Assembly: GCA_043798915.1 (NCBI GenBank)
Contig: JAZDOG010000002.1
Coordinates: forward strand, 712 to 64,711
DNA from: Pseudomonadota bacterium
GTDB lineage: Bacteria > UBA10199 > 2-02-FULL-44-16 > JAAZCA01
Length of the DNA: 64,000 nucleotides
Direction: 5' to 3'
The notes below the pieces were generated by a model. The model was not told where the DNA came from. It worked only from the letters and a program-made list of their open reading frames with translations, and searched no databases. Each line of letters opens with the position of its first letter. The stretch's first letter is position 1. A program made the translations under genes and the position numbers. This document shows positions 1,194-26,242 of the stretch, piece by piece.

Positions 1194-1287
1194 AGGAGAG
1201 TTACCCACAGAGTCCCATCCATCCGCCCGCCCAGCTACGCTTGGGGGCTCGCGGACGGACGGATGAGACTCTATGGATAACTCCCCT
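1194..1287 (-). repeat. 37-bp imperfect inverted repeat (long hairpin) inside the IS right end
   Basis: Arms 1194-1230 and 1251-1287; all six mismatches are C/A on +, i.e. G-U wobble pairs on -. Confidence 0.85.
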
Positions 1288-1429
1288 CGCATGGAATGAA
1301 AACAGTGTGCCGAGAATAGATGGCGGCGGTATCGGCTCGTATCCTTGCCCTATAAGCGCTTTCGCATTTGGGGACCCGGCGTATTACTGATCGCCGATCG
1401 CCTGACATCACGACTTTGCCGTTGCCGTG

Positions 1430-2380: not shown

Positions 2381-2411
2381 AAAACTGATAACTCCAGGTT
2401 TCTCCGGCAAC

Positions 2412-3332: not shown

Positions 3333-3354
3333 TCTGATTTTACGAGACAAATAT

Positions 3355-6248: not shown

Positions 6249-6953
6249 TTATGCGTGCCTTAACAGCCAAGTAGTTCGTCTTACTCGACCGAGAGTCCGC
6301 CCTTTAAGAGATCTGCTCCTGTGGCTCACGAGGGCAAATCCATGTTTTGTAAGTATCTGCGACATCTGGTCCTCGGTCCATTCGTATGGGTGACCTGGCA
6401 GACTGCCGCGATTTGGACATATTGCCTTAAGAATTTTTTTATGGACAAGGGATCGGACCGAATGAGCATCTACCGCAAATGCAAAAACACCGTCGGGTGA
6501 TAGAACCCTTTTTATCTCTGTCAGAATTGCCAACGGGTCATGAACGTGATCGAGGACGTTATTGCATACAACACAATCAAAGAACTTCTCCTCAAACGGA
6601 ATGGACTCTGCCTTAGCCATGACGTATTCTGTGCGACTTTGCACCCCGCCGATAAATTCATCCAAAAGCTTACAGCCGGATTGCGGGGGAAGAACGGGCA
6701 ACGGTTCCAAACCATAGGCCTCTTCAGATTGGAGCAACCACAACATTCCAACTCCCAATCCGCCGCATCCAACATCCAGCAATCGATGGAATCTCCTTGC
6801 CAAATACCCTTCCCTTTGAAGGTGCTCTGCTAGCGTAAACTGTCCATATAAATCATCTATAAGTCCAACTGGATCATGCTGCCGACTTATCCAATAGTCA
6901 GACTCAAACTTTTGTGCTTCCCGAAATCGCGTATCGCTGATAATCCTCGTCAT
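6249..6953 (-). CDS. Class I SAM methyltransferase
   Basis: LLDVGCGG, FDCVVCNNVLDHV, KRVLSPDG. Confidence 0.8.
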   Translation of the reverse strand: MTRIISDTRFREAQKFESDYWISRQHDPVGLIDDLYGQFTLAEHLQREGYLARRFHRLLDVGCGGLGVGMLWLLQSEEAYGLEPLPVLPPQSGCKLLDEFIGGVQSRTEYVMAKAESIPFEEKFFDCVVCNNVLDHVHDPLAILTEIKRVLSPDGVFAFAVDAHSVRSLVHKKILKAICPNRGSLPGHPYEWTEDQMSQILTKHGFALVSHRSRSLKGRTLGRVRRTTWLLRHA

Positions 6954-7861: not shown

Positions 7862-8826
7862 TGAAGATTCCCGGTCCGCACAGCGATGCAACTCGCCCTG
7901 AATTCTGAAAGCGTTTGCGGCTTTACACCATGGTTTTGCCACCAGGCAAAAACCCGGCGATAGGCATCAAAATGCCGATCCACATCAGACTCCGTGCGCC
8001 AATAAGGAGAGCAGCCTGCCATGAACTCGGACGAGTGGGACATCAGATTCAGCTGTGGCAAACGACTGTTGGCCCATGAACATACATTTAGCAAATTGCC
8101 GGCTGAAGCCTGAGGCGATGGCCTCAGCCAATTATTTGCAAGGCCCAACCTCCTTATGATGGCCGAGACATACCGGTTTTTTTCACATCCAAACAACCGC
8201 AACCCTGGCTTGATGGTACAAGGAACTTCCAGCAATTCACTCGCACCACGCCTGCAAATATCCTCTGTCCCCATGAGATAGGGTTGCATAGGTGCGCGCG
8301 TATAATCCATGATTCCAGTCGATGACCAATCGATGCCAGGTATGACGCTGGTGTCAATTCGAACACCGAGGGAAGTGAGGATATGCACGTGTCGTACGTC
8401 CAGCCCCCACCTCCCCGCTCGATGACTAAGTGGCGCACCAAATCGTTTGGTGATGAGATTTACCAAAGAAGTGAGCTTTGCCTCCAGAACCTCTTCGCTA
8501 TAGTCCGGCCCAACCCAGGCATGTTCTGATGAATCCTGTTTCACGACAGGCGGGGTTTCCCACAAGTGAGGGTGAATGCCCACCTCGCAATCACCATGGG
8601 CTAACAACGTTTCAAGGACGGAGGCACACACATCATCAGCGGCGACGGACCACGAAACGAGATACGTCGGACGAACACCGTAATCCTGACACAAGCGGTG
8701 AAATATCGGAAGATTCTGTATATTTTTCAAACACCGGCTATGCGTATCAGCCCAGACGTTGTCGGGTTCGACATCAATGGTGACGATACCTGCCGAACTC
8801 GACTTGTCTGAGAGACATTCATTCAT
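7858..8826 (-). CDS. Polysaccharide deacetylase (WalW-like)
   Basis: VTIDVEPD, EVGIHPH, SHRAGRWG, SHSSEF. Confidence 0.75.
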   Translation of the reverse strand: MNECLSDKSSSAGIVTIDVEPDNVWADTHSRCLKNIQNLPIFHRLCQDYGVRPTYLVSWSVAADDVCASVLETLLAHGDCEVGIHPHLWETPPVVKQDSSEHAWVGPDYSEEVLEAKLTSLVNLITKRFGAPLSHRAGRWGLDVRHVHILTSLGVRIDTSVIPGIDWSSTGIMDYTRAPMQPYLMGTEDICRRGASELLEVPCTIKPGLRLFGCEKNRYVSAIIRRLGLANNWLRPSPQASAGNLLNVCSWANSRLPQLNLMSHSSEFMAGCSPYWRTESDVDRHFDAYRRVFAWWQNHGVKPQTLSEFRASCIAVRTGNLQ

Positions 8827-9565
8827 GAGGCAAACCTACAGGACGCGCAATGGCGGCAAGAATCACCGGCGAACTCATCCTTGTCCCCAAAGGAGAGCAC
8901 TTGTCCTCGACCAGGATCCGCGCATTTGTGAAAATGTTCAGCAGCTTGGCCAACCCTCTCCCAAACGGCATTTTCTGCAACCAGGTATTAAAGATGAGTT
9001 GTCGCAAGTGCAAACCGGTGCCAAGCGTACCGACTATAGGGAACATGACCTCGACCTCAAAACCCGCCTCTCTCAGAATATGTCGCAACCCGTCCTGAGT
9101 GAAACGATAGTAGTCGCCTCCGGATGCCGGGTGATACGTCCATGTGCCATGGGTGGTTATAAACATCCGGCCTTCCGGGCGAAGCAATCGCCGGCAATCG
9201 CGCAAATAAAAGTTGTATCCAGGGATCAGATACACGACCTGCGTTGATATAATGCAATCCGCCACAGCATCTAGCAGAGGCACTATCTGCCCTGGTTCTA
9301 TAGTCACATCGGCGTGCGGGTTTGAGTGGGTGTCAATGCCAATATATTCGCAGTTATCTGGAAACATACTACGGTAGGGTTTCCCCCCGCAACCGAAGTC
9401 AATGACCTTCATTTTGGACTTAACATGTTCCGCTGCAAATTCCTTGATCGCATCGGCCAAGCCTCGCACAGGACAATAGTCAGCGTCCCAAATGCGCGGA
9501 TGCAGGCGCCTTGTCGTTTCGAATGTGCGCCCGTATTCATAAGGTATAATCTGTTTGCTCATCAA
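8819..9565 (-). CDS. Class I SAM methyltransferase
   Basis: VIDFGCGGKPY, RLLRPEG, DYYRFTQDGL. Confidence 0.8.
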   Translation of the reverse strand: MMSKQIIPYEYGRTFETTRRLHPRIWDADYCPVRGLADAIKEFAAEHVKSKMKVIDFGCGGKPYRSMFPDNCEYIGIDTHSNPHADVTIEPGQIVPLLDAVADCIISTQVVYLIPGYNFYLRDCRRLLRPEGRMFITTHGTWTYHPASGGDYYRFTQDGLRHILREAGFEVEVMFPIVGTLGTGLHLRQLIFNTWLQKMPFGRGLAKLLNIFTNARILVEDKCSPLGTRMSSPVILAAIARPVGLPHE

Positions 9566-10683
9566 TGTTTCCCCGCTGCCCGCAGCGCAAGCTCATGCCC
9601 GTCTACCATGCTCTCAAGGCTAAACAATTTATCAACGCGCAGCCTGGCACTAAATGAAAAATTTTGGTACCGGGATCTATCCTTCAAGAGAGCGACAGTC
9701 ATATTCGCAATAGACGCAGTGTCGCCATAGGGGGCCAAGATGCCCGTTTTATTTTGAACCACGGCATCACGAGTCCCACGGGCGTCAAATCCAATCACTG
9801 GCAATCCGGCGGCCATCGCTTCGAGCACTACTATCGGCATCGCCTCAATTTCGCTCAACTGCCACAGAAGATGTGAAGCAGTGAGTATTTCCGACACATC
9901 GTGCCGCTGCCCAAGGAGCTCCACCTGGTGTTCCAGTCCATGGACCTTCACAAGTTCTTCGAGTGCCGCACTATCAACCCCATCACCAATAATTAGCAAT
10001 CTGACATTAGGGAGTTTATCCAAAACAGCCTTGAATGCACGTATGCCGTGTGCCTGCCCTTTGTTGGGACTCAATGTTCCAATCATCACGATCACAGGGG
10101 AGTTGTCAGGCAGCTTTGGCACAAAACAGAACTTTTCAAGGTCAATACCGTTGGAGACACAGCGAAACCTCTCTTCATCAGCCTTAAAGTAACGCGCAGC
10201 AAACGGGATCATCGAATCGGACACCGTTATAAATGACGACTTCAGCCTCCACGCAACGAAACGAGACAAATAGCGGATAAACTCATTCTTGAGTGTACCG
10301 TAACGGGTCATATCGCTATAACTATGTAGTGTATGCGCACATGGCACGACCAAACCAGCCCCCGCCGCCAGCCAAGCGACGTTTGGCGTATGAATCTCAA
10401 TCACATCGGGATTAAATTGCTCGACCACTTTGCGTAGTGAAGCCGCTGAACGTGGAATTGACCTCACCCAACGATACTTATCCTCAGGCAGCAGATAATG
10501 GCGAAGGACTGCCTTATAACGATCCTCCTGATACTCATCCACATCCAGCCAAGACACCACTTCAACTTCATGGCCACGCCTTTGAAGACCCAAGGCAATC
10601 TCTAAAAGGACACGCTCAGCGCCGCCGCGGCGCAGGCTATGGACAAGCATTAAAATACGCATTGGTAAACTCTCGTCATTCAA
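9562..10683 (-). CDS. GT4 glycosyltransferase
   Basis: GGAERV, NGIDL, EAMPIVVLEAMAAGLPVI. Confidence 0.9.
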   Translation of the reverse strand: MNDESLPMRILMLVHSLRRGGAERVLLEIALGLQRRGHEVEVVSWLDVDEYQEDRYKAVLRHYLLPEDKYRWVRSIPRSAASLRKVVEQFNPDVIEIHTPNVAWLAAGAGLVVPCAHTLHSYSDMTRYGTLKNEFIRYLSRFVAWRLKSSFITVSDSMIPFAARYFKADEERFRCVSNGIDLEKFCFVPKLPDNSPVIVMIGTLSPNKGQAHGIRAFKAVLDKLPNVRLLIIGDGVDSAALEELVKVHGLEHQVELLGQRHDVSEILTASHLLWQLSEIEAMPIVVLEAMAAGLPVIGFDARGTRDAVVQNKTGILAPYGDTASIANMTVALLKDRSRYQNFSFSARLRVDKLFSLESMVDGHELALRAAGKH

Positions 10684-11498
10684 CGAAACACAAAATTATA
10701 AGTCTCCATTTGGCTCTTTCCTGCTACAACTTCAGCCACGGTTCCACGAGTCACTTCCCGCAACATCCCATCCACCGTAAACGCACGATAACCCCGGCTA
10801 AAAAACATCTCGAAGGTCTGTACAAAGTTCGGGTTCATGGATGTCCCGGCGGGCTGGTGCTCGGTGGTGGTGATCTCCACCATCCAGATTGGACGGGGTT
10901 TATTGGCAAAGGTCCGCGTAGCGCCTTGCAGCACCATCAGCTCCGTGCCTTCAATGTCAACCAAAATCAAGGCTCGCTTCCCCTGCAGCACGCCGCCCAG
11001 CATTCGATCCAGACTCAACACCGGCACATGGGTGACATAGCTTTCTGGGCTAGAGGCCCAGCCTTTGACAAGCGAGGCGCCAGACCCACCTCCCCACATT
11101 TGCAGAATATCCGTATCAGCCCCCAACGCCAAGGGGAACACCTCTGCCTGAGTTGCCCAGCCATTGTTGCGAATGTTCTTCAGCAGATAGTGCAAATTGC
11201 GCGCGATGGGCTCAACAGCAACGACTGGTTTGCCCAAGCTTAGCGCATGGCAGCAGTAATAACCCACATTGGCACCGATGTTGACCAACACATCCACTTC
11301 CTGCAACAGGCTGCGCACCAATTTTGTTTCCTCCGGCTCAAATGTTCCGGCCGCCATGGCTTCATTCCCCGCAAGAGTGAAACTCCAAGGGGTCATCCTG
11401 GCAGGGTCGCGCTGGTCAAGCAAATCGCGCAAGTTGCGCAGAAATTGAGCAACAGCGGGGAATCGCTCAATCGTTGAGCGAATAAGCGTTCTGTTCAT
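10680..11498 (-). CDS. FkbM family methyltransferase
   Basis: NIGANVGYY, VAVEP, LVDIEGTELMVLQGA; RBS GGAG before ATG 11498. Confidence 0.85.
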   Translation of the reverse strand: MNRTLIRSTIERFPAVAQFLRNLRDLLDQRDPARMTPWSFTLAGNEAMAAGTFEPEETKLVRSLLQEVDVLVNIGANVGYYCCHALSLGKPVVAVEPIARNLHYLLKNIRNNGWATQAEVFPLALGADTDILQMWGGGSGASLVKGWASSPESYVTHVPVLSLDRMLGGVLQGKRALILVDIEGTELMVLQGATRTFANKPRPIWMVEITTTEHQPAGTSMNPNFVQTFEMFFSRGYRAFTVDGMLREVTRGTVAEVVAGKSQMETYNFVFR

Positions 11499-11526
11499 AT
11501 ATATTCTCCAGTCAGTGTTTTTGCTA

Positions 11527-12345
11527 TCACCTGGTTTGAGCAGGCGAGTAACCTCTTTTGATGAAGACGAAAACACCGAGGTTATAACGACTTTGCGCCA
11601 GTTCCAACAGCGTATCTGGGTTTGGCTGCACCTGTCGAACCACACCACCAGCACCGATCACGATCAATTCCCGCAACCGCAACCCACTGGATTCAGCGCA
11701 GCGAATGATCGTGCGCGGATCAAATACGCGGTGGGCATTGAATTCCACCCGCTCCCAACCGATGGGTGTTGAAAGATAGAATCTGCCATCAGGCTTGAGC
11801 AGTTGCGCCATGTTGGCAATACCGCGCTCATGACCTCTAGGATCAATGGGGTCACCGTAGCGACCCAGCCCAAAATGCTCGATGGCGTGCAGACAGGAAA
11901 GCGAGTCACAGTAGCCCCCCCCGTCGGCAGAGGGCAATGCAACCGGCTGCATCAAATCCGCCTGCTTGAACACAACCCCTGGAATCTGGGCTGTAATAGG
12001 ACGCACATCGAACACTTCGATCTCTCGAAAACTCGCCACATGGGCGACAAACACGTTCACAAGAGAGCCGACATCCACATGATGTTGTGGCCTTGCATCA
12101 TGAATCCATCGAGCAACAAGCAGATCCTGCCAGAAATACTCACCTTTGGTTGTACCGCCTTCCTCGTAGCGATCGTGAAAACAAGGCATCAACATCAGCT
12201 TGTCGGAACAGCCCCTGCGAAACCTCCGCCAGTCACGCAGAAAAAGCGGAATACCCCATACCGAACGTATGAAGCGGCGCGGGTCGAAACCGAATTCGCT
12301 TGATAGTAGCCAGTGAAGTTTGATTAGAAAATTTTTTAGGGACAT
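11527..12345 (-). CDS. DUF268-like methyltransferase-fold protein
   Basis: YFWQDLLVAR, HVDVGS, SLSCLHAIEHFGLGRYGDPID, FNAHRVF. Confidence 0.75.
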   Translation of the reverse strand: MSLKNFLIKLHWLLSSEFGFDPRRFIRSVWGIPLFLRDWRRFRRGCSDKLMLMPCFHDRYEEGGTTKGEYFWQDLLVARWIHDARPQHHVDVGSLVNVFVAHVASFREIEVFDVRPITAQIPGVVFKQADLMQPVALPSADGGGYCDSLSCLHAIEHFGLGRYGDPIDPRGHERGIANMAQLLKPDGRFYLSTPIGWERVEFNAHRVFDPRTIIRCAESSGLRLRELIVIGAGGVVRQVQPNPDTLLELAQSRYNLGVFVFIKRGYSPAQTR

Positions 12346-12352
12346 TTCGGGC

Positions 12353-13792
12353 CTACAATTTTCGATAAACCAAGATATAAAGGAAATGGGCAATGCACAC
12401 AATTGATATATACGTTACGAAACTTCGTTTGACAAACTGTGTATCCAAACCGTTTCGCAAGAGCCACAAAACCAGAATGGATAATGATGGAATAAGATAA
12501 TAAGCTCCCGTCCTCATGCCCGACAAAGCAGGTAAAATAAACATCAATGAAATGAGAAACAATACAGGACAGCAAGTAGCCCCGCTTAGAATTTTTTTTA
12601 CTATTGACACAACTACAAATAGTTTGCCGATCATAAAAACCGGGAACACATTAAGACTGATAAGTACTGCAGGCACAATCAAGGCGAATTCATCACCATC
12701 CTTAAACATCTGATAAAATGGAAATGGCGACAAAACCAGGAAAAACAATTTAACCAAATCGTCAAAGACGGGAATTCCCACACGAAATTGCTGCCAAAGG
12801 TCCTGCTCACTCGCTGCGAGTTGAAATACCTCTATATTATTTGCGGCTATTGTTGAAAAAGAACTGAAAAAAGCACTTATATGAACTAAAAAAGCGGATA
12901 CAAATAACATACCAAGAAACCAGAGCAATGCTCCGCGCTTTGACATCGATTGAAATCTTTTCAGCAGAAAACCTATTCTGAGTTTGCAGGAGATAAAGAT
13001 AACAGCCAAAGCGAACACAAGGGGTATATACACAGGTCTATGAATCGCAATAAGCCACATAGACATTGCTATACTTAGCCAATCCAGCAAGGATAACCGA
13101 TACGGACTGACAATTCCAAGTGCCACGAGGCACATTGCAACCACGGCTATAGCTTCTCGATCGTATGGCAAAGCAAAAGGTAAAATAAACCAAGCAATCA
13201 TGCCCGCCAAAAAGAAGTTTTTCCTTTGTCCATCCCCGGACAAGTTATATATGTGCAAGGCTACTGCATAAAAAGTCACCCCAAACCACCATGCCAGAAT
13301 GGCAAAGGAATAGTAACCAATGCCAGGCATAGACACTAAAGCAAAACCAAATTTATAAGGAGAGAGTAAATTATTATAATGGGCGCTTACCACCCAAGGA
13401 TATTGCAAGGCTTCTATCAACCCGCTGTCCTCATACATGGCCTGAAATCTTGCAGCAGCATCACCCATAGAAATTAAATCGCTCTTGTGATACGCGGTTG
13501 TTTCGAAGGCCTGAATGGCTTTGAATGAATCCAAACCTTCCAACATAAGCGCGAAGTAACTACCCAACAGGGAAAGAATCAGGCTGAACACTAGAAAGAA
13601 TAAGAAGGTTCTTTGCGCTTGCCGATGGAAAGCGAGTCCCCGATACAAGAAAACAGTACCCACTGCCAAAAAGACAAGCACCGCAATCCAAGTGACACCT
13701 GCACTGCCGCTGAAGTCGTGAATAAAAGCCCCGGCAACAAACGGGGCAAATGCGCAAATAAAAATCTGGAATGGTGAGATAAATTTCTTCAT
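12353..13792 (-). CDS. Multi-pass membrane protein, putative Wzy polymerase or O-glycan ligase
   Basis: Ten or more hydrophobic segments, AT-rich, located in a glycan locus; function inferred from context. Confidence 0.5.
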   Translation of the reverse strand: MKKFISPFQIFICAFAPFVAGAFIHDFSGSAGVTWIAVLVFLAVGTVFLYRGLAFHRQAQRTFLFFLVFSLILSLLGSYFALMLEGLDSFKAIQAFETTAYHKSDLISMGDAAARFQAMYEDSGLIEALQYPWVVSAHYNNLLSPYKFGFALVSMPGIGYYSFAILAWWFGVTFYAVALHIYNLSGDGQRKNFFLAGMIAWFILPFALPYDREAIAVVAMCLVALGIVSPYRLSLLDWLSIAMSMWLIAIHRPVYIPLVFALAVIFISCKLRIGFLLKRFQSMSKRGALLWFLGMLFVSAFLVHISAFFSSFSTIAANNIEVFQLAASEQDLWQQFRVGIPVFDDLVKLFFLVLSPFPFYQMFKDGDEFALIVPAVLISLNVFPVFMIGKLFVVVSIVKKILSGATCCPVLFLISLMFILPALSGMRTGAYYLIPSLSILVLWLLRNGLDTQFVKRSFVTYISIVCIAHFLYILVYRKL

Positions 13793-17559: not shown

Positions 17560-19101
17560 TTAATACTTATTGCTGAAAGAGACCTTGTCGCGCAGGTTCT
17601 TAAAATACGACAGATTGGCTAAGGGCGCAAGAATCCTATACTCCAGTTTCTTGTTCCTCGACGACAACCAATACGATACTCGACACAAAGACGTCACCAA
17701 CACATATTCAAAAAGATTAAAGTGACGCCTCGAAAAAACCTTGAATGCCGCCCACGAAAACCACTCGATGTCCGCCTGGCGCTCTTTTGAATAATTCCAA
17801 TAAAGATCTTTCACATACAAAGGGATGAACGACCCAGCAAAATAGACGAAAAATGGCCGTGTGCTGTGGGAAGGAGGATATGTCAGCGGATTATGTTTAG
17901 TCGAATCAAGCCACCAATCTGTGAAACCAAATTGCTTGTGATAATCGTCATAAAGCTTTGTTTCCGGATAAGGGATTGGATATACTACGATCATAAAGAA
18001 TCTTACATTGCCGGGAATTTTTTTTATTTCATTTAAAATATTCTGGTAATGCTTTCGATTCTCCCACGGAAACCCAACAAGAACATTAAAAGAAATATGA
18101 ATGGGCTGTGTTTGTGACAAATATCCAAATCGTTGATGAATCGTTTTAACATCATACCTCTTATTGATCTTCCTTAATGTCTCATCATCCCAGCTTTCAA
18201 TGCCGAAGCTTATCCGTGTAATTCCAGCCTGTTTAGCTCTCTGTAAACTCTCCAAGTCAATGCTATCGATGCGCGTCCTGATGGACATTTTCAGCTTCAA
18301 CCCGGATTCAGCAATCAAATCGCAGAAACGATAAAAACGATCTTTCTTACATAGAATCTCATCATCCTGAAAAGCCACGGACTGAATCTTATATTTCTCC
18401 ACCAAACTTTTAATCTCCCCAAAAACATTTTCCGCGCTTCTTACACGCATCGTCCGGCCAAAAGCGGTGTGGCTTGAGCAAAAAATACAATTAAAAGGAC
18501 ACCCACGGCTTGAAAAAACACTCCAAAAAATTGGATTCGACATTGGATCGCTGCTGCCCGAATAGTCCTCAATTCGAAAATCCTTAAAATCAGGAAATGG
18601 AAGCGTATCCAATTCTTTAATCAGCGATCTTGGCTCGGTGAATACAATCTTGCCACCTTCATCCTTAAAGCATATCCCCTTGACGGTCTTTAATTCCCGT
18701 TGACCCTGATAGTATTCAGCTAGCTCAAGAATCGTTCCTTCTCCCTCTCCAATGCAGACAATATCACCGCCGTTATCCAGAGACTCATGTGGACGGGAAT
18801 TAGGGTGAGGCCCCCCCAAGACGACCGGAATATTATGCTTTTTTAAATTCCGAATATACTCATAGGACGCTATCACATTAGTAATTGTCAGTGTAATACC
18901 AATAAAATCCGGACAATATTGAGAGATAATCTTTTCGATCTCTTCCGGCGACTTATAAGCGTGCGGCGCCGTTCCATCCACGATACGCACGTCATGGCCG
19001 CGGGCTCGAAGCACTGCGGCCAAATAACCGAGATTCAACAGCGGTTCTGGTGATGGAGGAGCCGTGGGCGGATTCAACAATACAACTCGTAAATTATTCA
19101 T
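17560..19101 (-). CDS. B12-binding radical SAM protein
   Basis: LLNPP...LGYLAAVL, LGGPHP, SRGCPFNCIFC, FGIES; RBS GGAGG before 19101. Confidence 0.9.
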   Translation of the reverse strand: MNNLRVVLLNPPTAPPSPEPLLNLGYLAAVLRARGHDVRIVDGTAPHAYKSPEEIEKIISQYCPDFIGITLTITNVIASYEYIRNLKKHNIPVVLGGPHPNSRPHESLDNGGDIVCIGEGEGTILELAEYYQGQRELKTVKGICFKDEGGKIVFTEPRSLIKELDTLPFPDFKDFRIEDYSGSSDPMSNPIFWSVFSSRGCPFNCIFCSSHTAFGRTMRVRSAENVFGEIKSLVEKYKIQSVAFQDDEILCKKDRFYRFCDLIAESGLKLKMSIRTRIDSIDLESLQRAKQAGITRISFGIESWDDETLRKINKRYDVKTIHQRFGYLSQTQPIHISFNVLVGFPWENRKHYQNILNEIKKIPGNVRFFMIVVYPIPYPETKLYDDYHKQFGFTDWWLDSTKHNPLTYPPSHSTRPFFVYFAGSFIPLYVKDLYWNYSKERQADIEWFSWAAFKVFSRRHFNLFEYVLVTSLCRVSYWLSSRNKKLEYRILAPLANLSYFKNLRDKVSFSNKY

Positions 19102-19162
19102 GTCTCCTCCATTAGTAATATTGACCACACCACGTTTGCAATTGCATGCGCCAGGATGCTAC

Positions 19163-20149
19163 CTAGAGTGTATATTCAGCAGCGTTATATTTATCGAGAT
19201 TGCCTCTCATCCATTCAATAGTGGCGCTCAATCCGTCTTCCAGAGATACGGCGGGAACCCAGCCCAGCATATTTCTCGCCTTCGTGCTGTCCGCAATTAA
19301 TCTCCCAACTTCACTTTTCTCCGGTCGCAATCTCCGGTCATCCTGCTTGATCTGAATCTTGCAATCCGTCATACGCGCAATTACCTTTACCAATTCACCA
19401 ATGCTGATCTCGCGCCCCGATCCAAGATTAAATGTCTGCCCAATGGCCTCAGGACACTCAGCTGCCCTGATGTATCCATCCACTGTATTTCTTACATAAT
19501 TCAGGTCGCGGGTTGGCGCAAGGCTGCCAAGACAGACCTCTTTGCCCGAAAGACATTGAGCGATGATGGTTGGAATGATTGCCCGTGCCGACTGGCGAGG
19601 CCCAAATGTGTTGAATGGACGAACCGTGACCACCGGCAGTTCATACGAGCGATGAAACGACTCCGCAACTTGATCCGCGCCAATTTTACTGGCCGAGTAG
19701 GGTGATTGGCCCTGCAGCGGATGCTTCTCATCTATCGGAGCATACAAGGCCGTACCATACACCTCGCTTGTGGACGTATGCACTACTCTGCTTACGCGAG
19801 CCTCCCTGGCCGCCTGCAGAATATTCAGCGTACCTTCGATGTTAGTGCGAATATAAGACAATGGGGCATGATACGAATAAGGAATGGCAATGAGCGCTGC
19901 AAGATGAAACACCGTATTCACATCACCCATGGCCTCCTTCACAATCATCGGATCACATATATCCCCAGCTATAACCTCGATATCATTCTTTTGCACGAAA
20001 GCACGGTCGAGGCTCCCCCATGAGCCCGAGGCATTATAGTGCACAAAGGCCCGAACACATGCGCCCAATTTAACCAGCTCATCTGTCAGATGACTTCCGA
20101 TAAATCCAGCAGCACCTGTGACGAGCACTTTCTTTTTACCCCAGTCCAT
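19163..20149 (-). CDS. legB: NAD-dependent 4,6-dehydratase, LegB-like
   Basis: GAAGFIGSHL, HLAALIAIPYSYHAP, HTSTSEVYGTA, QSPYSASK, RPFNTFGPRQSARA, RLRPEKSEV. Confidence 0.85.
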   Translation of the reverse strand: MDWGKKKVLVTGAAGFIGSHLTDELVKLGACVRAFVHYNASGSWGSLDRAFVQKNDIEVIAGDICDPMIVKEAMGDVNTVFHLAALIAIPYSYHAPLSYIRTNIEGTLNILQAAREARVSRVVHTSTSEVYGTALYAPIDEKHPLQGQSPYSASKIGADQVAESFHRSYELPVVTVRPFNTFGPRQSARAIIPTIIAQCLSGKEVCLGSLAPTRDLNYVRNTVDGYIRAAECPEAIGQTFNLGSGREISIGELVKVIARMTDCKIQIKQDDRRLRPEKSEVGRLIADSTKARNMLGWVPAVSLEDGLSATIEWMRGNLDKYNAAEYTL

Positions 20150-20158
20150 GACTGCCCC

Positions 20159-21226
20159 CTATATCATTCCGTTTTTGACATCGCTGATGGCCTTCTCGTA
20201 ATTCTCGATTTGGCCAATATCCATCCAGTATTCTCTGATGGGGAAACTGATGACGCGCCGCCCGCTTTCAACCGCATTCTTAATGAGATCGGTCATATCA
20301 TAGTGCTGATCACCTGGAATCTGCCGGCAGAGTTGAGGACCAATCAGATAGATTCCTGCGTTGATAAAGTTTCGGATTACCGGTTTCTCCGAAAGGCCGG
20401 TGACCTTGGCACCCTCTGTATGGACGACCCCATATGGAACACACACCTCGTGCTGCTTCACGGCTATAGTCATATCTGCCTTATGATCATGATGGAAATC
20501 GCACATGGACCGAAAATCCAGCCCGGTAAGGACATCCCCGTTGATGACCAACAGAGGCTCTTCATGTTCTTTGATCAATCCCAACGCCCCCGCTGTGCCA
20601 AGAGGGCGATCCTCTTCGACATACTGAATTTTTATCCCAAAGTCGTCCCCATCGCCAAAGTGGTCGACAATCTGATCCCTCATATGACGGGTTGCGAGAT
20701 TCACACGCCGGATGCCCGTTTTTTTCAACTGCATGATGATCAATTCCAGCAAAGGGCGGTCTCCCATGGGGAGCATGGGTTTACAGATATCCTTCGTCAG
20801 CGGATATAGCCGCTTTCCAGCGCCACCAGCCATGACGACGGCGTTAAGAGGCAATGTATAATCAGAAACAAGATCGCTAAGAATAACAAGATCGACAACC
20901 CTTCCATCCGCATCCGTCAATGGAATATGGCGGACATCATGTTCTGTCATCAGCCGGAGCAACTCAACTGCCGGCGTACCGACGGAGGCCGTAAAAGGCT
21001 GCCTGTTTCCAGACTCCGAACGCTGCCTCGCCCAATCTTCAACAGTCATGTGCATGGGAAGATCATGCAAAACGACGCGCCTGAGATCCCCATCTGTAAT
21101 AGTGTACAGCAAGCGATTTTCATCGTCTACCACCAGCGCTATTCCCTTGAGGTTCACATCCACGCGTTTCATCGTCTCATGAAGGGTGTGATGTGGCGTG
21201 ACGCAAATATTTTTGAGTTTATCCAT
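20159..21226 (-). CDS. ptmE: CBS-domain sugar-1-phosphate nucleotidyltransferase (PtmE/LegX-like)
   Basis: Two N-terminal CBS domains (TITDGDLRR) followed by MAGGAGKRLYPLT, LGTAGAL, YWMDIG. Confidence 0.8.
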   Translation of the reverse strand: MDKLKNICVTPHHTLHETMKRVDVNLKGIALVVDDENRLLYTITDGDLRRVVLHDLPMHMTVEDWARQRSESGNRQPFTASVGTPAVELLRLMTEHDVRHIPLTDADGRVVDLVILSDLVSDYTLPLNAVVMAGGAGKRLYPLTKDICKPMLPMGDRPLLELIIMQLKKTGIRRVNLATRHMRDQIVDHFGDGDDFGIKIQYVEEDRPLGTAGALGLIKEHEEPLLVINGDVLTGLDFRSMCDFHHDHKADMTIAVKQHEVCVPYGVVHTEGAKVTGLSEKPVIRNFINAGIYLIGPQLCRQIPGDQHYDMTDLIKNAVESGRRVISFPIREYWMDIGQIENYEKAISDVKNGMI

Positions 21227-21230
21227 TGGA

Positions 21231-22421
21231 TTAGTAGGTCATTTTCTTTTGAATGAGGCCTGCATCAATAGGAATAGTCGCCAGTGTTTCAGCAATGCGG
21301 GACCCTGCATTCCCCGCACCGTATGGATTGGCACATTGCGCGCAATGAGATCTCCATGCTTCATCATCGATACATTTTCTCACTGCCGCGTAGATATCAT
21401 TCTCATCGTAGCGCACATCAACCACATTGTCTCCTCGGAGGCGCCCCTGCTGTCGGGATCCTATGTTTACCGCAGGGCATCCGAAGTAGGGCGTCTCTTT
21501 TATCAAGGCCGATGAATTTCCAACAAACGCACCCCTTCCTATCCGGCCGATGTAATGCAGCACCCCATGAAAATTATGTCGACCAAGGCTCTGATATATC
21601 TGAATGTCTTTGCCCTGCATGCCTTCAAATTGCCTGTTTATCTCATCAATGATCCGCACACCTCCAGCATCATTGTTCGGGTATGTGACAATGACCTGGC
21701 ATCCGTCCTTGATCAAGCGTTTGATGGCACGCGCTGCCGGAACAACCTGCGCAACGGCCAGATCGAACTCCGTAGTCACTGAATGCTGGCAGAACAACAC
21801 GAGCGGGCGATCCGGACGACTGCCATGCCGTCCTTCAATTTCCTCCTTATTGGCATATTCGCCACGGGCCGCAAGATCCAAACAGGGTTGGCCTACGGTA
21901 AATACGCGCCATGGTTCTTCACCCATCTGACATATCCTTTTTGCCGCATGTTCATTCGTCGTGAAGTGGAGGTGGGCCAGCTTCGTCATGGCGTGGCGCA
22001 CTGAATCGTCAAGGGCACCCCCTTCAGTGTAATCCCCCCCCTCTATGTGCGCTGTTGGAATTCTCATCTGCGTGCCCGCCGTCAGTGCCGCAAAACTTTC
22101 GAACCTATCGGCATAAATCACAAGCCAATCAGGCTGCAGTTCATCGAGGATGTGGCTCACGCTGACAATGCCCGTTCCAATAGCCTGTGCCGTCGCATAC
22201 AGAGAATCCTGTCGCATGGTCATTTCAACAGTTCGATAGACGCTGAATCCATCTCGTTCAATTTCAGAGATCGTCTTTCCAAAACCTGATTCGAGATGAG
22301 CTCCACCGACAATGAGGTACGGTTCAAGTCTCTCATCGCCGTAAATTGCGCGTAAAATCGGATACTGCAAACCGTACTCGGCCCTATTTCCTGTAAATAT
22401 CGCAATTTTTCTTCTTTTCAC
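21231..22421 (-). CDS. neuC: Hydrolysing NDP-GlcNAc 2-epimerase (NeuC/LegG)
   Basis: FTGNRAEYG, DRFE, HIEGGD, DDSVRHAMTKLAHLHF, GNSS, NIGSRQQGR. Confidence 0.9.
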   Translation of the reverse strand: MKRRKIAIFTGNRAEYGLQYPILRAIYGDERLEPYLIVGGAHLESGFGKTISEIERDGFSVYRTVEMTMRQDSLYATAQAIGTGIVSVSHILDELQPDWLVIYADRFESFAALTAGTQMRIPTAHIEGGDYTEGGALDDSVRHAMTKLAHLHFTTNEHAAKRICQMGEEPWRVFTVGQPCLDLAARGEYANKEEIEGRHGSRPDRPLVLFCQHSVTTEFDLAVAQVVPAARAIKRLIKDGCQVIVTYPNNDAGGVRIIDEINRQFEGMQGKDIQIYQSLGRHNFHGVLHYIGRIGRGAFVGNSSALIKETPYFGCPAVNIGSRQQGRLRGDNVVDVRYDENDIYAAVRKCIDDEAWRSHCAQCANPYGAGNAGSRIAETLATIPIDAGLIQKKMTY

Positions 22422-22422
22422 G

Positions 22423-23343
22423 TCAGCTCCTCATCAAGTGGAGTGTATCTGCAAGCCCATCATCGAGCCCCCACATTGGACGCCACGCACAATCGCGTTC
22501 AATCTTCTCAATATTGAGAACTATTCGCGTGTCGCCTTCAGATGGGCCGGTTTCCTCTGCCTCATATGCCCTTCCACCGAGTCGACAGAGGCATTGAATC
22601 AACCCTCCCACTGAGGTTCCCACGCCCGCGCCAAGATTATAAATTCCAAACGACCCTTGAAGCGCCCTCTCGGCAAGATTCACAAGGCCATCGGCGACAT
22701 CCTTGACATAAATAAAATCCCGAACGGGGCGAAGTGTTCTCACACAGAAGCGTTCCTGCTGTATCTCCTGGCGCAGAATTATGGCTGCTATTGAATCCTC
22801 AGCGGCACCCCGACCATACACATTTCCCAGTCGAGCAACGGCGCAGGACATTCCGAATTCTTTGGAGTAGGCTCGCAAAAGCTCTTCAACCGCTAATTTT
22901 GAAGCCGTGTAAATGGAAGTTGAATGTACTTGATCAGTCTCAATCGATGTCTGGCCAATCGTCTCTCCGTAGAGAAGAGATGTGGAGGGATAAACGATTT
23001 GATGGATTCCGACTTGGCGGCACCACTCGAGCACATGCAACATCCCATCAACATTGACATTCCACGCATGCAGGGGACTCCGGCTATTGCTCCCCGCATG
23101 CGACATGCCGGCAAGTTGAAATACCACTGTCCCGGCTCCACCACTTTCCACATACCTCGCGACATCGCCCAACCCATTGCTCCGGCAAATATCAGCCTCC
23201 ACAAATGATACTCCCGGGCGCACAACATTCTCGCAGTCAACCGCTACGATATTGATGCCCTTATGTTGAAGGCACTCAACAAGCGCCCCGCCCAAGAAAC
23301 CGTTCGCACCTATCACAATCGCATTCGAAAACGATTCGATCAT
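22423..23343 (-). CDS. Extended SDR epimerase/4-keto-sugar reductase
   Basis: GANGFLG, YTASK (YxxxK), RLGNVYG, RDFIYVKDVA. Confidence 0.8.
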   Translation of the reverse strand: MIESFSNAIVIGANGFLGGALVECLQHKGINIVAVDCENVVRPGVSFVEADICRSNGLGDVARYVESGGAGTVVFQLAGMSHAGSNSRSPLHAWNVNVDGMLHVLEWCRQVGIHQIVYPSTSLLYGETIGQTSIETDQVHSTSIYTASKLAVEELLRAYSKEFGMSCAVARLGNVYGRGAAEDSIAAIILRQEIQQERFCVRTLRPVRDFIYVKDVADGLVNLAERALQGSFGIYNLGAGVGTSVGGLIQCLCRLGGRAYEAEETGPSEGDTRIVLNIEKIERDCAWRPMWGLDDGLADTLHLMRS

Positions 23344-24374
23344 TTGAAGTCCGTCGGCGCCAACTGGACATCTGGTGGAAGATCCTTTGCCGCCATGCAG
23401 CCGAGAACTTTTGGAAATTCGCGCGCAAGGAGTGCGCCTGTGCCCGGCCTTTTGACCCAGATATTTTCGGGGGTCAGCTTTTCACCCGTTTTGATTGGCT
23501 TGATCGTAACGATGCTTGCATACGCGAAATCAATCGTCGGCTGTTCCTCCGGCAGGATGGTCTTCTGCCCCCCCAACGCCATATGGATCGCTTTCGAACC
23601 ATCGATCATATCTCTGAGCTCTTCTGGATCGATCGAGAGTGCGATGTCCGGGCCTGGCCACTGTTTGTCGGATGTAAAATGTTTTTCAAGAATCCGAGCT
23701 CCCAGCGCCACGGCTGCCAAACAGGTATAGTTTCCAACTGAGTGGTCGCTCAAGCCCATGACGGCATCGCTGAATTGATTCTGAAGCTGCGCAATCGCTC
23801 CCAGCCGAACCTTCTCATAGGGGGTTGGGTACATTGACGTGCAATGCATCAGTGCATACGGAACTCCAGCCTTTCGAACAATATCAACAGCTCCCGATAT
23901 CGATTCCATGTCATTCATGCCGGTGCTTAATATGACTGGCTTTCCAAATGACGCGATATGCGCGATGAGCGGATAGTTATTGCATTCGCCTGATCCAATC
24001 TTATAGGCGCAAACACCCATCTGCTCAAGACGGTTTGCCGCTGCCCGTGAGAACGGAGTGCTCAAATAAATCATGCCGTTTTCTTCTACGTATGTTTTTA
24101 TCTTCCTGTCCTCCGACTCGGACAGCGCACAGCGTTTCATGATAGCCCAGATGCTCTCCCTGGCATTTGCAGGAATCACATCATTGGGAATCATCTCGTC
24201 CTCAACCACATGGCACTGAAACTTCACGCATTCACATCCCGCGGCCTTAGCATCATCCACCATCTGGACCGCCTTATCGACGCAGCCCTCGTGGTTGATG
24301 CCGATTTCCGCTATAACCAGCGGAAGAGAATCATCTCCGATCGTTCGACCAGATATTATCAATGATTTCTTCAT
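23340..24374 (-). CDS. neuB: N-acetylneuraminate synthase with C-terminal SAF domain
   Basis: AEIGINHEG, STPFSRAAA, KIGSGECNNYPL, GLSDHS, EKHFT, WVKRPG. Confidence 0.93.
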   Translation of the reverse strand: MKKSLIISGRTIGDDSLPLVIAEIGINHEGCVDKAVQMVDDAKAAGCECVKFQCHVVEDEMIPNDVIPANARESIWAIMKRCALSESEDRKIKTYVEENGMIYLSTPFSRAAANRLEQMGVCAYKIGSGECNNYPLIAHIASFGKPVILSTGMNDMESISGAVDIVRKAGVPYALMHCTSMYPTPYEKVRLGAIAQLQNQFSDAVMGLSDHSVGNYTCLAAVALGARILEKHFTSDKQWPGPDIALSIDPEELRDMIDGSKAIHMALGGQKTILPEEQPTIDFAYASIVTIKPIKTGEKLTPENIWVKRPGTGALLAREFPKVLGCMAAKDLPPDVQLAPTDFK

Positions 24375-24396
24375 GAGACATTTGCCCTTTCAGAAA

Positions 24397-25506
24397 CTAC
24401 TCAATGATAAACTTTTCTCTCCAGACACCATCTCTATCCTGCTCAAACAGATCTCTGTTATACCACTTATCCAGAGTGCCCCAGAACTCCCGCGGAGACA
24501 TCCGGGTAAACTCGCAAAACTCATCGACAATTCCCTGATCAAGCTTCTTGTCATACTCTCTCACGAAGGGGATCATCTCGTCTCGCGTCTTGAGTCCGGC
24601 GCGTATCCAGCGCGACGCCATCTCCGTGGCAGATGCGTGACCGAATTTCGGATACTTCAAATACTGATTCAAAAGATAACCTATTGAGTCGACCTGATTA
24701 TACTGCTCGAGAGTTCCTTCTCTGACATATTCATGCCCCAAATGCCGAAATCCCCAACGCTTGGCGACTTCGTAATTATGATGAGTGTCCCATGGGACAA
24801 AGTAGCTCATATAGATCGGCTCCAGTTCATGCCGTTTGCACTCTTCAAACGTCGGCTGTTTCGCTGACTCCAAGTCTTTGTATGTCAGCTGTCCATCAGC
24901 TACCCACCGGCTGAAATCTACCGGCTTCACCACATCATTCAGCGGCTGCATCATGGCCGACGGTGTCTCCTCATTGTATTTTCCGCCGTATGTATAATTG
25001 ACATTCTCCCCGTACACGAGGAGCTTTACCCCAAGCTTCATCGCCATTCGATAGGGATACGCATATATCAATGCATCTGCATACCACGTGGGGGAACCCA
25101 GTTCGATAAAAGCCTTTTTATCCATAATTCTCGCCGCGTGGCGATTAGGATTCAATTGAATGATGTCACAGCCGAACGTTTCCGATATATTCTCAACATT
25201 TTTTCTTCCTGTCTCTGTCCAATCCGTATTTCCAACCGCCAAGAGAATCGGATTCATCTTCATCAATTCCTTCATCACATATACTTGAAAATGCGAATCC
25301 TTACCTCCTGATACCGCGACCGCACAGTCGTAAGAATTGCCATTGCAACCGCGATATTTATCGCAAATGGCTTCTAGTTCCTTCCTGCGCTTCGCCCAAT
25401 CAGTTGTCTTCTGTTTTTCATAACTGATACATGCCGCGCACACTCCATCGACAAACGTTATCCCAGGCCTCGTGTCCGGCATTAGACATTTTTTACATCT
25501 CTTCAT
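24397..25506 (-). CDS. N-acetyl sugar amidotransferase (PseA/WbpG/PtmG family)
   Basis: CKKCLMPDTRP, CAAC, PP-loop SGGKDS, YLKYPKFGH. Confidence 0.88.
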   Translation of the reverse strand: MKRCKKCLMPDTRPGITFVDGVCAACISYEKQKTTDWAKRRKELEAICDKYRGCNGNSYDCAVAVSGGKDSHFQVYVMKELMKMNPILLAVGNTDWTETGRKNVENISETFGCDIIQLNPNRHAARIMDKKAFIELGSPTWYADALIYAYPYRMAMKLGVKLLVYGENVNYTYGGKYNEETPSAMMQPLNDVVKPVDFSRWVADGQLTYKDLESAKQPTFEECKRHELEPIYMSYFVPWDTHHNYEVAKRWGFRHLGHEYVREGTLEQYNQVDSIGYLLNQYLKYPKFGHASATEMASRWIRAGLKTRDEMIPFVREYDKKLDQGIVDEFCEFTRMSPREFWGTLDKWYNRDLFEQDRDGVWREKFIIE

Positions 25507-25510
25507 AATT

Positions 25511-26242
25511 TTACCCTCCCTTTGTGTTAGAGTGATTTTGATTCGTCATAATAAGACCGGCGAGATACAAATCCCATTCCGTATCGATGTCAATCGATCG
25601 TTCGGGGGGCATGATGTACGGAAATGTTCGTTTGGGGAAAAAGGTCTTTTCATCGACCAACGAACGGCAGCGGTTGAGATAAAGCGCGCCGTTGGTCGCA
25701 TATGCCGTCGGCAATGACTGCCGGCGCAGATATTGAATATCGCTTGCGACAAAATCCTCAAGCGTCCCGTCGGCACGCAGCCGTTTCGTCAAAAATGGAT
25801 GTTTATCAACCTCACAAACGCTGACAACAGCGTCTGCAGATTGCTCCTCCGCGATGCATATGCAATTGTCGATATCTGCTGCAGTTCTACACGGCGAGGT
25901 GGGCTGCAAGAGCAAAATGTAATCCGAACTCACATTGATCTGGTCACGCATAAATTCAAGGGCATGCAACACGACTGAGATATGGGAGGAATCATCCTGT
26001 GCCAGAGATGGCGGGCGCATGAACGGCACATCAGCGCCAAAGGATTTTGCAACATCAGCGATTTCCTGATCATCGGTGGACACAATGATCCGGCTGATCC
26101 TTTCGCACTGCAGAGCCGCTTCGACAGTCCATCCGATCAACGGCTTTCCTGCGAGCATTTTGACGTTTTTTCGCGGAATCGACTTCGATCCGCCCCTGGC
26201 GGTGATGAGGGCTATAATTTTCGGCGTTTCTGATCGTTTCAC
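25511..26242 (-). CDS. neuA: CMP-nonulosonate synthetase
   Basis: ARGGSKSIPRKN, VSTDD, LQPTSP, SIDIDTEWD; GTG start overlaps the rfbD stop. Confidence 0.9.
   Translation of the reverse strand: MKRSETPKIIALITARGGSKSIPRKNVKMLAGKPLIGWTVEAALQCERISRIIVSTDDQEIADVAKSFGADVPFMRPPSLAQDDSSHISVVLHALEFMRDQINVSSDYILLLQPTSPCRTAADIDNCICIAEEQSADAVVSVCEVDKHPFLTKRLRADGTLEDFVASDIQYLRRQSLPTAYATNGALYLNRCRSLVDEKTFFPKRTFPYIMPPERSIDIDTEWDLYLAGLIMTNQNHSNTKGG

Follow-up and report, generated by a model that had tools for sequence, protein, structure and literature searches.

A hybrid nonulosonic acid gene module with a reductase-like enzyme proposed to stand in for the usual amination steps

Within the window, the whole 64,000-nucleotide stretch of DNA analysed here, seven tightly packed minus-strand genes at positions 19163-26242 encode a NeuA, a WbuX-type amidotransferase, a NeuB, an extended SDR, a NeuC, a PtmE-like CBS-nucleotidyltransferase and a LegB-type 4,6-dehydratase, with intergenic gaps of only -4 to 22 bases (Table 1). 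A reductase-like enzyme here appears to take the place of the usual amination steps, so that the surface sugar of the cell is probably a 9-deoxy relative of sialic acid. On balance, the seven genes are best regarded as one operon-embedded pathway whose product would be a 3,5,9-trideoxy nonulosonic acid, activated with CMP and still bearing its C7 hydroxyl. The contiguous seven-gene module of the original prediction was borne out in gene families, coordinates and packing, and of the computational tests named there, all of which were carried out, none came out against its hybrid-pathway interpretation. A full-text literature search found no pathway of the form described, in line with the earlier remark that none had been characterised.

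Module layout and proposed pathway

Table 1. Genes of the module and its downstream neighbour (positions in the window)
Gene and assignment	Position	Strand	Family evidence
neuA, CMP-nonulosonate synthetase (cytidylyltransferase)	25511..26242	-	PF02348 (CTP_transf_3) 95 bits
WbuX/PseA-type N-acetyl sugar amidotransferase (acetamido to acetamidino)	24397..25506	-	TIGR03573 321.6 bits (cut-off 203.2)
neuB, nonulosonate synthase, Neu-type clade	23340..24374	-	PF03102 255 bits and SAF domain
Extended SDR, proposed NDP-4-keto-6-deoxy-HexNAc 4-reductase	22423..23343	-	PF01370 (Epimerase) 152 bits
neuC, hydrolysing NDP-HexNAc 2-epimerase, Leg (GDP) lineage	21231..22421	-	TIGR03568 361.9 bits (cut-off 235.9)
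ptmE-like CBS-domain sugar-1-phosphate nucleotidyltransferase	20159..21226	-	two CBS stretches and PF00483 (NTP_transferase) 150 bits
legB, NDP-GlcNAc 4,6-dehydratase	19163..20149	-	TIGR04180 455.2 bits (cut-off 475)
B12-binding radical SAM enzyme, module membership uncertain	17560..19128	-	PF02310 and PF04055

The favoured scheme, for which the balance of evidence tips modestly positive, runs from GDP-GlcNAc through a 4-keto-6-deoxy intermediate and its reduction by the SDR to 6-deoxy-ManNAc and a 9-deoxy-Neu5Ac-type acid, with amidination and CMP activation. PtmE, probably a GDP-forming enzyme, would supply GDP-GlcNAc, which LegB would convert to GDP-2-acetamido-2,6-dideoxy-4-hexulose. Reduction at C4 by the SDR would then take over from two steps of the legionaminic route, amination by LegC and acetylation by LegH, after which the Leg-lineage NeuC would remove GDP and invert C2 to give 6-deoxy-ManNAc or its C4 epimer. 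The Neu-type NeuB is predicted to join this sugar and PEP into the 9-deoxy-Neu5Ac-type acid, WbuX to convert its 5-acetamido group to acetamidino, and NeuA to yield the CMP donor for an O-antigen-like polysaccharide. The scheme builds on the gene families and their order, on the conservation of the module, on where its enzymes fall in the trees and on the absence of LegC and LegH; beyond these we infer the SDR reaction, the nucleotide used, the C7 stereochemistry, the timing of amidination and the product.

At the upstream end of the module the GTG start of neuA (26242) overlaps the rmlD stop codon and is preceded by a ribosome-binding site, AAGAGGAG. Its product scores 165 bits against TIGR03584 (PseF), under the cut-off of 205.7, and the NeuA assignment is therefore generic rather than sugar-specific. 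At the other end, the B12-radical SAM gene begins 34 bases past legB. The top NCBIfam matches of this enzyme are B12-radical SAM methylases, every one far under cut-off, and weak homologues lie near nonulosonate genes in metagenome loci L123 (32%) and L177 (24%), so a role as a tailoring C-methylase is possible.

Lineages of the module enzymes

The synthase resembles true sialic acid synthases. Its alignment to N. meningitidis NeuB (E 9.4e-121, against 3.7e-51 for SpsE and 4e-41 for PseI) contains all six motifs quoted in the original prediction and keeps 12 of the 13 listed active-site residues, the exception being N184, which is replaced by serine; this substitution is missing from the module synthases of L137 and L146, which keep N184. 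In a tree whose Neu and LEG types were labelled by gene context, the window NeuB falls in a clade (support 100/99) with three synthases from plain neuABC clusters, those of Bacillus cereus pBC210, an Alistipes plasmid and S. meliloti pSymB, and the synthases of LegB+LegC clusters form a clade apart (supports 100/99 and 97/86). The phylogenetic check thus came out as anticipated. Module NeuBs are 46-56% identical to plain-Neu NeuBs, and the window NeuB shares 31-39% identity with the synthases that canonical LegB+LegC clusters of its phylum encode; a search of 187 Fusobacteriales genomes gave 22 homologues, spread over 21 of them, and none exceeds 40% identity to it. The score of the window NeuB on TIGR03569 is 368.7 bits (cut-off 399.65). 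A large published phylogeny reportedly could not cleanly tell NeuB from LegI (PMC8208679), which weighs against the favoured scheme.

The epimerase belongs elsewhere. In a quick tree with SH-aLRT support only, module NeuCs form a clade of their own (100) on the LegG side of a split supported at 98, opposite the plain-Neu NeuCs, and it is this placement on the Leg side that makes the module truly hybrid. Identities are 30-32% between module and plain-Neu NeuCs and 31-37% between the window NeuC and that of canonical Leg clusters of the phylum. The front end is likewise of legionaminic type: the PtmE-like enzyme is 29-48% identical to its counterpart in canonical LegB+LegC clusters (35-51% in module loci), and LegB, which carries the STSEVYG and YSASK (YxxxK) motifs, is 53-60% identical to the LegB of same-phylum canonical clusters with an above-cut-off LegC. 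Points that tell against the favoured scheme are that LegB and NeuB both score just under their NCBIfam cut-offs and that WbuX lacks its usual partners, as judged by the HisF-like (WbuZ) family. The N184 of L137 and L146, the departures seen in metagenome loci L117, L121, L122 and L123 and the fragmented state of the genome bin, all described below or above, count on the same side.

The enzyme on which the scheme turns is the SDR. All 15 family members compared keep GxxGxxG, S120, Y145 and K149, and the dehydratase Glu is missing (PSTSLLYG). Its nearest relatives by sequence and by fold (Foldseek; AF2 model, pLDDT 87) are GalE 4-epimerases (2p5u, 1.3e-26; 4zrm, 1.6e-23), and the Rmd reductase 2pk3 is nearly as near in fold, ranking 18th at 3.3e-21, so that sequence and fold do not separate a reductase from a 4-epimerase. 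The enzyme might accordingly be a 4-epimerase or other redox epimerase acting on an NDP-sugar or a nonulosonate, in which case a further enzyme would deal with the 4-keto group, or the group would persist at C7, and the product would be a stereoisomer or a 7-keto form. Besides the GalE matches, such a role would agree with the invariant Asp that closes strand 2, a residue that in SDRs generally suggests a bound NAD, and with two loci in which the NeuB-SDR-NeuC trio occurs without LegB. Yet known UDP-4-keto-6-deoxy-GlcNAc 4-reductases are likewise GalE-like, and the module has no other reductase candidate: the other dehydratases of the locus each have a reductase of their own (Gmd-Fcl and RmlB-RmlD), which leaves the SDR as the partner of LegB. 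The epimerase role is judged rather improbable, and a 4-ketoreductase acting on the LegB product is what we infer for this enzyme.

Recurrence of the module and the missing LegC and LegH

The arrangement was followed in 33 metagenome loci (280,047 bases) that carry a member of the SDR family beside NeuB and/or NeuC. In all 33 the SDR is flanked by NeuB and NeuC or, where the contig keeps just one of them, adjoins that one, a recurrence that excludes chance. NeuB and NeuC of at least 50% identity occur in 31 and 30 of these loci, LegB of at least 50% identity in 16 and PtmE in 17; where at least 2 kb are available downstream of the trio, LegB is present in 14 of 16 loci. The five module genes occur in three or more different orders and yet remain together. 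In L121 and L123 the trio is followed by more than 5 kb without LegB (a 29% 'LegB' in L123 was rejected as a true GalE), and L122 additionally holds a second NeuB, of the LEG clade, and a LegH-like gene. An independent parallel in favour of the scheme comes from eight loci that pair a PseB/FnlA-like dehydratase with a different GalE-like SDR. NeuB is retained in five of them and there belongs to the clade of the window NeuB, and none of the eight has an aminotransferase in the module, a weak DegT-fold match in L175 lying 7 kb off.

It could be that two pathways merely travel together, NeuC, NeuB, NeuA and WbuX making Neu5Ac or Neu5Am, and PtmE, LegB and the SDR making a GDP-6-deoxy-HexNAc of QuiNAc or FucNAc type that is used directly by a glycosyltransferase. 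The well-preserved active site of the synthase, the retention of N184 in L137 and L146 and the trio without LegB in L121 and L123 would all fit, as would an amidotransferase 74% identical to the window WbuX that lies beside a plain neuA-neuB-neuC cluster, with no dehydratase, on an Alistipes indistinctus plasmid. Against such a division, the SDR adjoins NeuB or NeuC, not LegB, in 33 of 33 loci, the five genes stay linked as their order changes, and the module NeuC lies on the Leg/GDP side, far less like its plain-Neu counterparts than NeuB is. Two separate pathways are accordingly considered unlikely, if the least so of the alternatives, and the single-pathway reading is preferred.

The original prediction had also noted that the locus lacks both a DegT/LegC aminotransferase and a LegH/PglD acetyltransferase, and contig C46, of which the window is positions 712-64711, indeed carries neither. 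The contig measures 65,681 bases, so that 711 and 970 bases lie outside the window at its two ends, not enough room for legC and legH together. Across the genome, a 105-contig bin that is 97% complete, no member of either family was found at cut-off. The DegT fold (PF01041) has six matches, none on C46; on the LegC family nothing scores above 208 bits (cut-off 420), the value for an aminotransferase of an Arn-like locus on contig C99, adjoining a polyprenyl-phosphate glycosyltransferase, and the best score on the NeuD/PglD family (TIGR03570, LegH type) is 55 bits (cut-off 160.8). Searching the genome by tblastn with LegC from canonical clusters matched C99 and C76 alone (23.6-30.5% identity), and three LegH-like queries of the same origin gave partial, short hexapeptide-repeat fragments, all on contigs other than C46; the LegH query was confirmed as PglD/PerB-like. 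None of 12 genomes of the same family has LegC.

The metagenome loci, which answer the suggestion that clusters lacking legC be sought, conform: one alone of 33 (L117) has a LegC-type gene, and one of 33 has a LegH-like gene. In L117 a LegC-family gene (402 bits, cut-off 420) directly follows LegB, which shows that SDR and LegC are not mutually exclusive. Six other loci contain a DegT-fold gene that was ruled out as LegC, being RfbH, the 3-dehydrase of a separate 3,6-dideoxyhexose module (the L116 copy, at 690.7 bits and a cut-off of 423, neighbours an E3-like reductase, an SDR and a TPP enzyme). That the cell makes ordinary legionaminic acid, with LegC and LegH acting in trans (an aminotransferase on C99 or C76, or genes that the bin does not contain) and with an accessory epimerase role for the SDR, would suit the close similarity of LegB to canonical LegB, the gene order in L117, the fragmented and incomplete bin and the 208-bit C99 score. 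This is nonetheless the least probable of the alternatives, and quite improbable: NeuB lies outside the LEG-context clade, LegC-type and LegH-like genes are each lacking in 32 of 33 module loci, the C99 gene is part of an Arn-like set, and neither this genome nor its relatives offers a LegC at cut-off.

Comparison with known nonulosonate systems

The usual classification of nonulosonic acids recognises Neu, Leg and Pse routes, and in genome surveys the sugar is predicted solely by the clade to which the synthase belongs. The module is liable to be misread under such schemes, as 'sialic acid' from its NeuB or as 'legionaminic acid' from its LegB and PtmE. If the reading preferred here is true, a dehydratase and SDR without an aminotransferase would become an annotation rule for a 7-hydroxy-9-deoxy sugar, and the module would provide a genetic basis for 3,5,9-trideoxy nonulosonates, the biosynthesis of which was not found in print, predict a new stereoisomer, and offer enzymes with which 9-deoxy sialic acids could be made. 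In the literature consulted, such acids are met solely as synthetic ligands of Siglecs or neuraminidases. More tentatively, and at somewhat less than even confidence, the module and its PseB-like/SDR version may represent an uncharacterised, environmentally widespread class in which a 4-ketoreductase replaces transamination and acetylation, the GDP-linked version of the window making 9-deoxy-neuraminic acid derivatives (D-glycero-D-galacto, 5-acetamidino) that the B12-radical SAM enzyme may modify further. No report of D-glycero-D-galacto 9-deoxy-neuraminic acid in a natural glycan was found in the literature consulted.

Fusaminic acid, which the original prediction had cited as precedent, is 9-deoxy with a C7 hydroxyl and a 5-acetamidino group (PMC7371886); no other natural trideoxy nonulosonate is named in the literature consulted. 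Its substitution pattern is the one predicted for the module, and the gene content of the module is compatible with it. The parallel thus holds for the trideoxy pattern but not for the pathway, since the L-gluco configuration in the name as cited there would point to a PseB-type (inverting) route; no account of fusaminic acid biosynthesis was found in the literature.

Among WbuX/PseA amidotransferases, to which the window gene belongs by its above-cut-off TIGR03573 score, members also occur in L111, in L169 and in the canonical Leg clusters that the phylum contains. There they are accompanied by HisH- and HisF-like genes, whereas the window WbuX stands alone as judged by the HisF-like family: the best score in a genome search, which covered the WbuZ (HisF-like) family only, was 38 bits against a cut-off of 299.7. 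The Alistipes homolog is also solitary in the 18.4-kb stretch examined.

The Neu5Ac pathway (N. meningitidis SiaA/SiaC/SiaB) shares with the module a Neu-type NeuB with nearly all its active-site residues. That route makes ManNAc directly from UDP-GlcNAc without deoxygenation genes, whereas the operon here also encodes a dehydratase, a nucleotidyltransferase and an SDR, its NeuC falls outside the Neu lineage, and its NeuB has Ser in place of Asn184. The CMP-legionaminic acid pathway of Campylobacter jejuni (PtmE, LegB, LegC, LegH, LegG, LegI, LegF) shares with it the CBS-nucleotidyltransferase, the LegB-type dehydratase (455 bits) and the Leg-lineage 2-epimerase, and related loci have a Ptm-like neighbourhood of Gfo- and adh_short-type genes. 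Unlike that pathway, the module has no LegC or LegH, its synthase is not of the LegI lineage, and an SDR sits between synthase and epimerase.

The module and its polysaccharide locus

The contiguous run of seven genes originally predicted at 19163–26242 is confirmed by gene coordinates and family matches (see table), with intergenic spacings of −4 to 22 bases. The neuA gene starts with a GTG overlapping the stop codon of rmlD, and the module therefore belongs to a long polysaccharide operon, in which manC-gmd-fcl, rmlB-A-C-D and genes for UDP-glucose dehydrogenase and an ABC exporter of MsbA/PglK-like type are joined by two B12-radical SAM genes and by several for methyltransferases and glycosyltransferases. 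The glycan made here is probably heavily methylated, and possibly C-methylated. Two ORFs between the exporter and the methyltransferases, for which no Pfam or NCBIfam family match was obtained, are candidates for a polymerase or nonulosonate transferase.

Features of the module and its surroundings, in window coordinates
Feature	Position	Strand	Family match or remark
neuA	25511–26242	minus	CTP_transf_3
WbuX-type N-acetyl sugar amidotransferase	24397–25506	minus	TIGR03573, 321.6 bits (cut-off 203.2)
neuB	23340–24374	minus	PF03102, 255 bits, and SAF
extended SDR	22423–23343	minus	Epimerase family
neuC	21231–22421	minus	TIGR03568, 361.9 bits (cut-off 235.9)
CBS and NTP_transferase gene (PtmE-like)	20159–21226	minus	CBS, PF00483
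LegB-type dehydratase	19163–20149	minus	TIGR04180, 455.2 bits (cut-off 475)
B12-binding radical SAM proteins (two)	17560–19128; 1271–2410		polysaccharide locus
SAM methyltransferase-like genes (at least six)	near 2412–3485; 6249–6953; 8819–9565; 10680–11654; 11527–12402
ORF of 479 aa	12353–13792
ORF of 631 aa	13799–15694
ORF of 1979 aa	48961–54900	minus

Base composition differs along the window, G+C being 43–51% over 12–26 kb versus 54–65% from 36 kb on. With an SDR profile, which gave the window's own gene 442.6 bits and the next best 183, none of the 92 further genomes of the phylum showed an orthologue, and none was present in 40 relatives (identity at most 33%). The low G+C and the absence of the SDR from the 92 phylum genomes suggest that the locus was acquired horizontally.

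Enzyme lineages and the missing amination genes

The lineage of the synthase was examined in a tree whose members were labelled by gene context alone: nine LEG-context synthases from same-phylum clusters with LegB and LegC over cut-off, three plain-Neu synthases (bpsEFG of B. cereus pBC210, an Alistipes plasmid, and S. meliloti pSymB beside a polysialyltransferase), and one annotated PseI. The finished IQ-TREE analysis (49 rows) places the window NeuB in a 34-row clade with support of 100/99, together with all 25 module synthases of the tree, the three plain-Neu enzymes and five synthases of a second cluster type discussed below, while the nine LEG-context synthases group apart. Pairwise identities (46–56% to plain-Neu, 31–39% to LEG-context synthases) and a PDB search, in which N. 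meningitidis NeuB (9.4e-121) precedes SpsE (3.7e-51) and PseI (4e-41), likewise bear out the original assignment of a Neu-type enzyme. According to PMC8208679, a very large tree failed to resolve NeuB and LegI into clean groups.

Thirteen residues line the catalytic site of N. meningitidis NeuB in a docking study (Table 3 of PMC6795526), and 12 of those listed there are retained in the window enzyme. The position of Asn184, residue 180 in window numbering, is occupied by Ser in 23/23 core module synthases and by Asn in the three plain-Neu enzymes, and the nine LEG-context synthases have Thr or Ser there. A Ser here would fit a ManNAc-like substrate lacking the 6-hydroxyl, yet the substitution falls short of proof, because the module synthases of loci L137 and L146 keep Asn, so that it is no universal signature of a 6-deoxy substrate, and because Leg enzymes are reported to carry Tyr at this position in a Vibrionaceae study (PMC7371886).

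Unlike the synthase, NeuC and LegB lean towards the legionaminic route. A quick NeuC tree (42 rows, SH-aLRT support only) separates plain-Neu NeuCs from LEG-context epimerases and module NeuCs (98), the latter forming their own clade on the LEG side (100). The window LegB is 53–60% identical to LegB of canonical clusters, and carries a YxxxK motif and the STSE motif typical of GDP-sugar dehydratases. With NeuC and LegB on the Leg side and NeuB in the Neu clade, the module is, judged by its protein sequences, a real hybrid, Leg-type in its front end and its hydrolysing epimerase and Neu-type in its synthase, in which the SDR would occupy the place where LegC, the C4 aminotransferase, and LegH, the acetyltransferase, would act. 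As far as sequence comparison reaches, the hybrid-pathway interpretation is supported.

That neither LegC nor LegH is encoded in the locus was part of the original prediction, and neither reached its family cut-off anywhere in the 2.34-Mb bin (97% complete). The contig extends beyond the window by only 711 and 970 bases at its two ends, and none of the six DegT-fold (PF01041) matches of the bin lies on it. Searched against the genome, the LegC family model reached at best 208 bits (cut-off 420) and the NeuD/PglD model 55 bits (cut-off 160.8), and queries with the LegC and LegH proteins of canonical clusters within the phylum, the checked LegH query being PglD/PerB-like, found nothing further. 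The strongest DegT-fold match, on contig C99, scores best as PseC/ArnB-like. It lies in an Arn-like set (L009, C99:46–52 kb of genome G000) with an SDR, two polyprenyl-phosphate glycosyltransferases and a 502-aa ORF, which probably serves lipid-linked aminosugar modification unrelated to the module. A PglF-like dehydratase on contig C67 was rejected as an amination route, its neighbours being a WecA-like gene and an SDR, without an aminotransferase.

Recurrence of the module in metagenomes

Relatives of the SDR in the protein collection fall at 97% (one), 58% (one) and 35–45% (about 16) identity. Scanning metagenome contigs with an alignment of these relatives, followed by tblastn mapping, yielded 33 loci (280,047 bases in total), in all of which the family member adjoins nonulosonic-acid genes. 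At 50% identity or more, NeuB was found in 31, NeuC in 30 and LegB in 16, and PtmE in 17, counts limited by contigs that often end early; where at least 2 kb follows the NeuB-SDR-NeuC trio, LegB is present in 14 of 16 loci. LegB is lacking from the remaining two, the sisters L121 and L123, the 29%-identity 'LegB' of L123 being a true GalE instead. The five genes are arranged in no fewer than three ways: PtmE-NeuB-SDR-NeuC-LegB, NeuB-SDR-NeuC-PtmE-LegB (that of the window), and LegB-NeuB-SDR-NeuC-x-PtmE. A LegC-type gene is found in one of the 33 loci (L117), and a LegH-like gene in one (L122), where it adjoins an additional, LEG-clade synthase. L117 and its sister L111 have NeuB-SDR-NeuC-LegB-Wzm-Wzt in common, L117 adding one LegC-family gene after LegB, and form a natural pair for asking what LegC contributes.

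DegT-fold genes in six module loci were rejected as LegC, since NCBIfam identifies them as RfbH. Downstream of the L116 RfbH (690.7 bits, cut-off 423) come genes for an E3-like flavin reductase, an SDR and a TPP enzyme; this set is a yersiniose-like 3,6-dideoxyhexose module unconnected with C4 amination. The set (RfbH 3-dehydrase, flavin reductase, SDR and YerE-like TPP enzyme) lies directly upstream of the nonulosonic-acid module in L102, L109, L113, L115 and L116 (also L105 and L106), with a nucleotidyltransferase and dehydratase added in L102; the TPP gene also occurs in L101 and L110. The glycan of those loci would join a branched 3,6-dideoxyhexose to a nonulosonate. A single-SDR pattern scan of species genomes returned 80 loci (identity at most 30%), none with NeuB, NeuC or NeuA nearby, and these are therefore unrelated GalE-like genes.

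Proposed reduction, probable amidination and related routes

The SDR has a Gly-rich loop and invariant Ser120, Tyr145 and Lys149, but the dehydratase Glu is missing (PSTSLLYG), so it should be an epimerase or a reductase. Its AlphaFold model (pLDDT 87) retrieves GalE epimerases first in Foldseek (1.6e-23), with Rmd, the GDP-4-keto-6-deoxymannose reductase, barely lower (3.3e-21), a ranking compatible with either activity. Pathway logic favours a reductase of the LegB product, because a 4,6-dehydratase product needs reduction or amination, no aminotransferase is available, the other reductases of the locus pair with their own dehydratases, and a second, independent cluster type also pairs a dehydratase with a GalE-like SDR.

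This second type comprises eight loci (L163, L164, L169, L171, L174, L175, L177 and L179) with the order NeuA-(Gfo)-NeuB-NeuC2-SDRx-dehydratase. The dehydratase is a PseB/FnlA-like UDP-GlcNAc enzyme (316–328 bits), the SDR differs from the window's, NeuC is of the Neu lineage, and NeuB, retained in five of the eight, belongs to the window's clade. None of the eight modules contains an aminotransferase, a weak DegT-fold match lying 7 kb off in L175. Such clusters may make a trideoxy nonulosonate by a UDP-linked route.

Amidination of the window's product is likely, if less secure, since WbuX stands alone and no WbuZ-family gene was found in the genome. In canonical Leg clusters, as in L111 and L169 (the latter of the second type), WbuX is accompanied by HisH- and HisF-like genes, whereas the window module lacks such companions. 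The window WbuX, above its family cut-off, is 74% identical to an amidotransferase following plain neuA-neuB-neuC on the Alistipes indistinctus plasmid p2BBH45 (L187, 8331–12337), an arrangement that hints at a 5-acetamidino neuraminic acid in this gut member of the Bacteroidota.

A known product for comparison is fusaminic acid, 5-acetimidoylamino-3,5,9-trideoxy-gluco-nonulosonic acid, of F. nucleatum 25586 (PMC7371886). The accessible portions of PMC7371886, PMC12648312, PMC12940168 and PMC10915975 mention no other trideoxy nonulosonate and do not describe how fusaminic acid is made; in the searchable literature, 9-deoxy sialic acids appear as synthetic ligands only, and no route to a trideoxy nonulosonic acid through LegB or another dehydratase and a reductase was found. 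A tie between the second cluster type and Fusobacterium was rejected, Fusobacteriales NeuBs being at most 40% identical. PseB with RmlD-like and PseI-like genes and without PseC occurs in just two of 17 Fusobacteriales regions (L259 of G163 and L265 of G137), with partly fragmented ORFs; L259 has WbuX too. Their gene set might resemble a possible fusaminic-acid route. The window module itself is best filed as a variant form of nonulosonic-acid biosynthesis.
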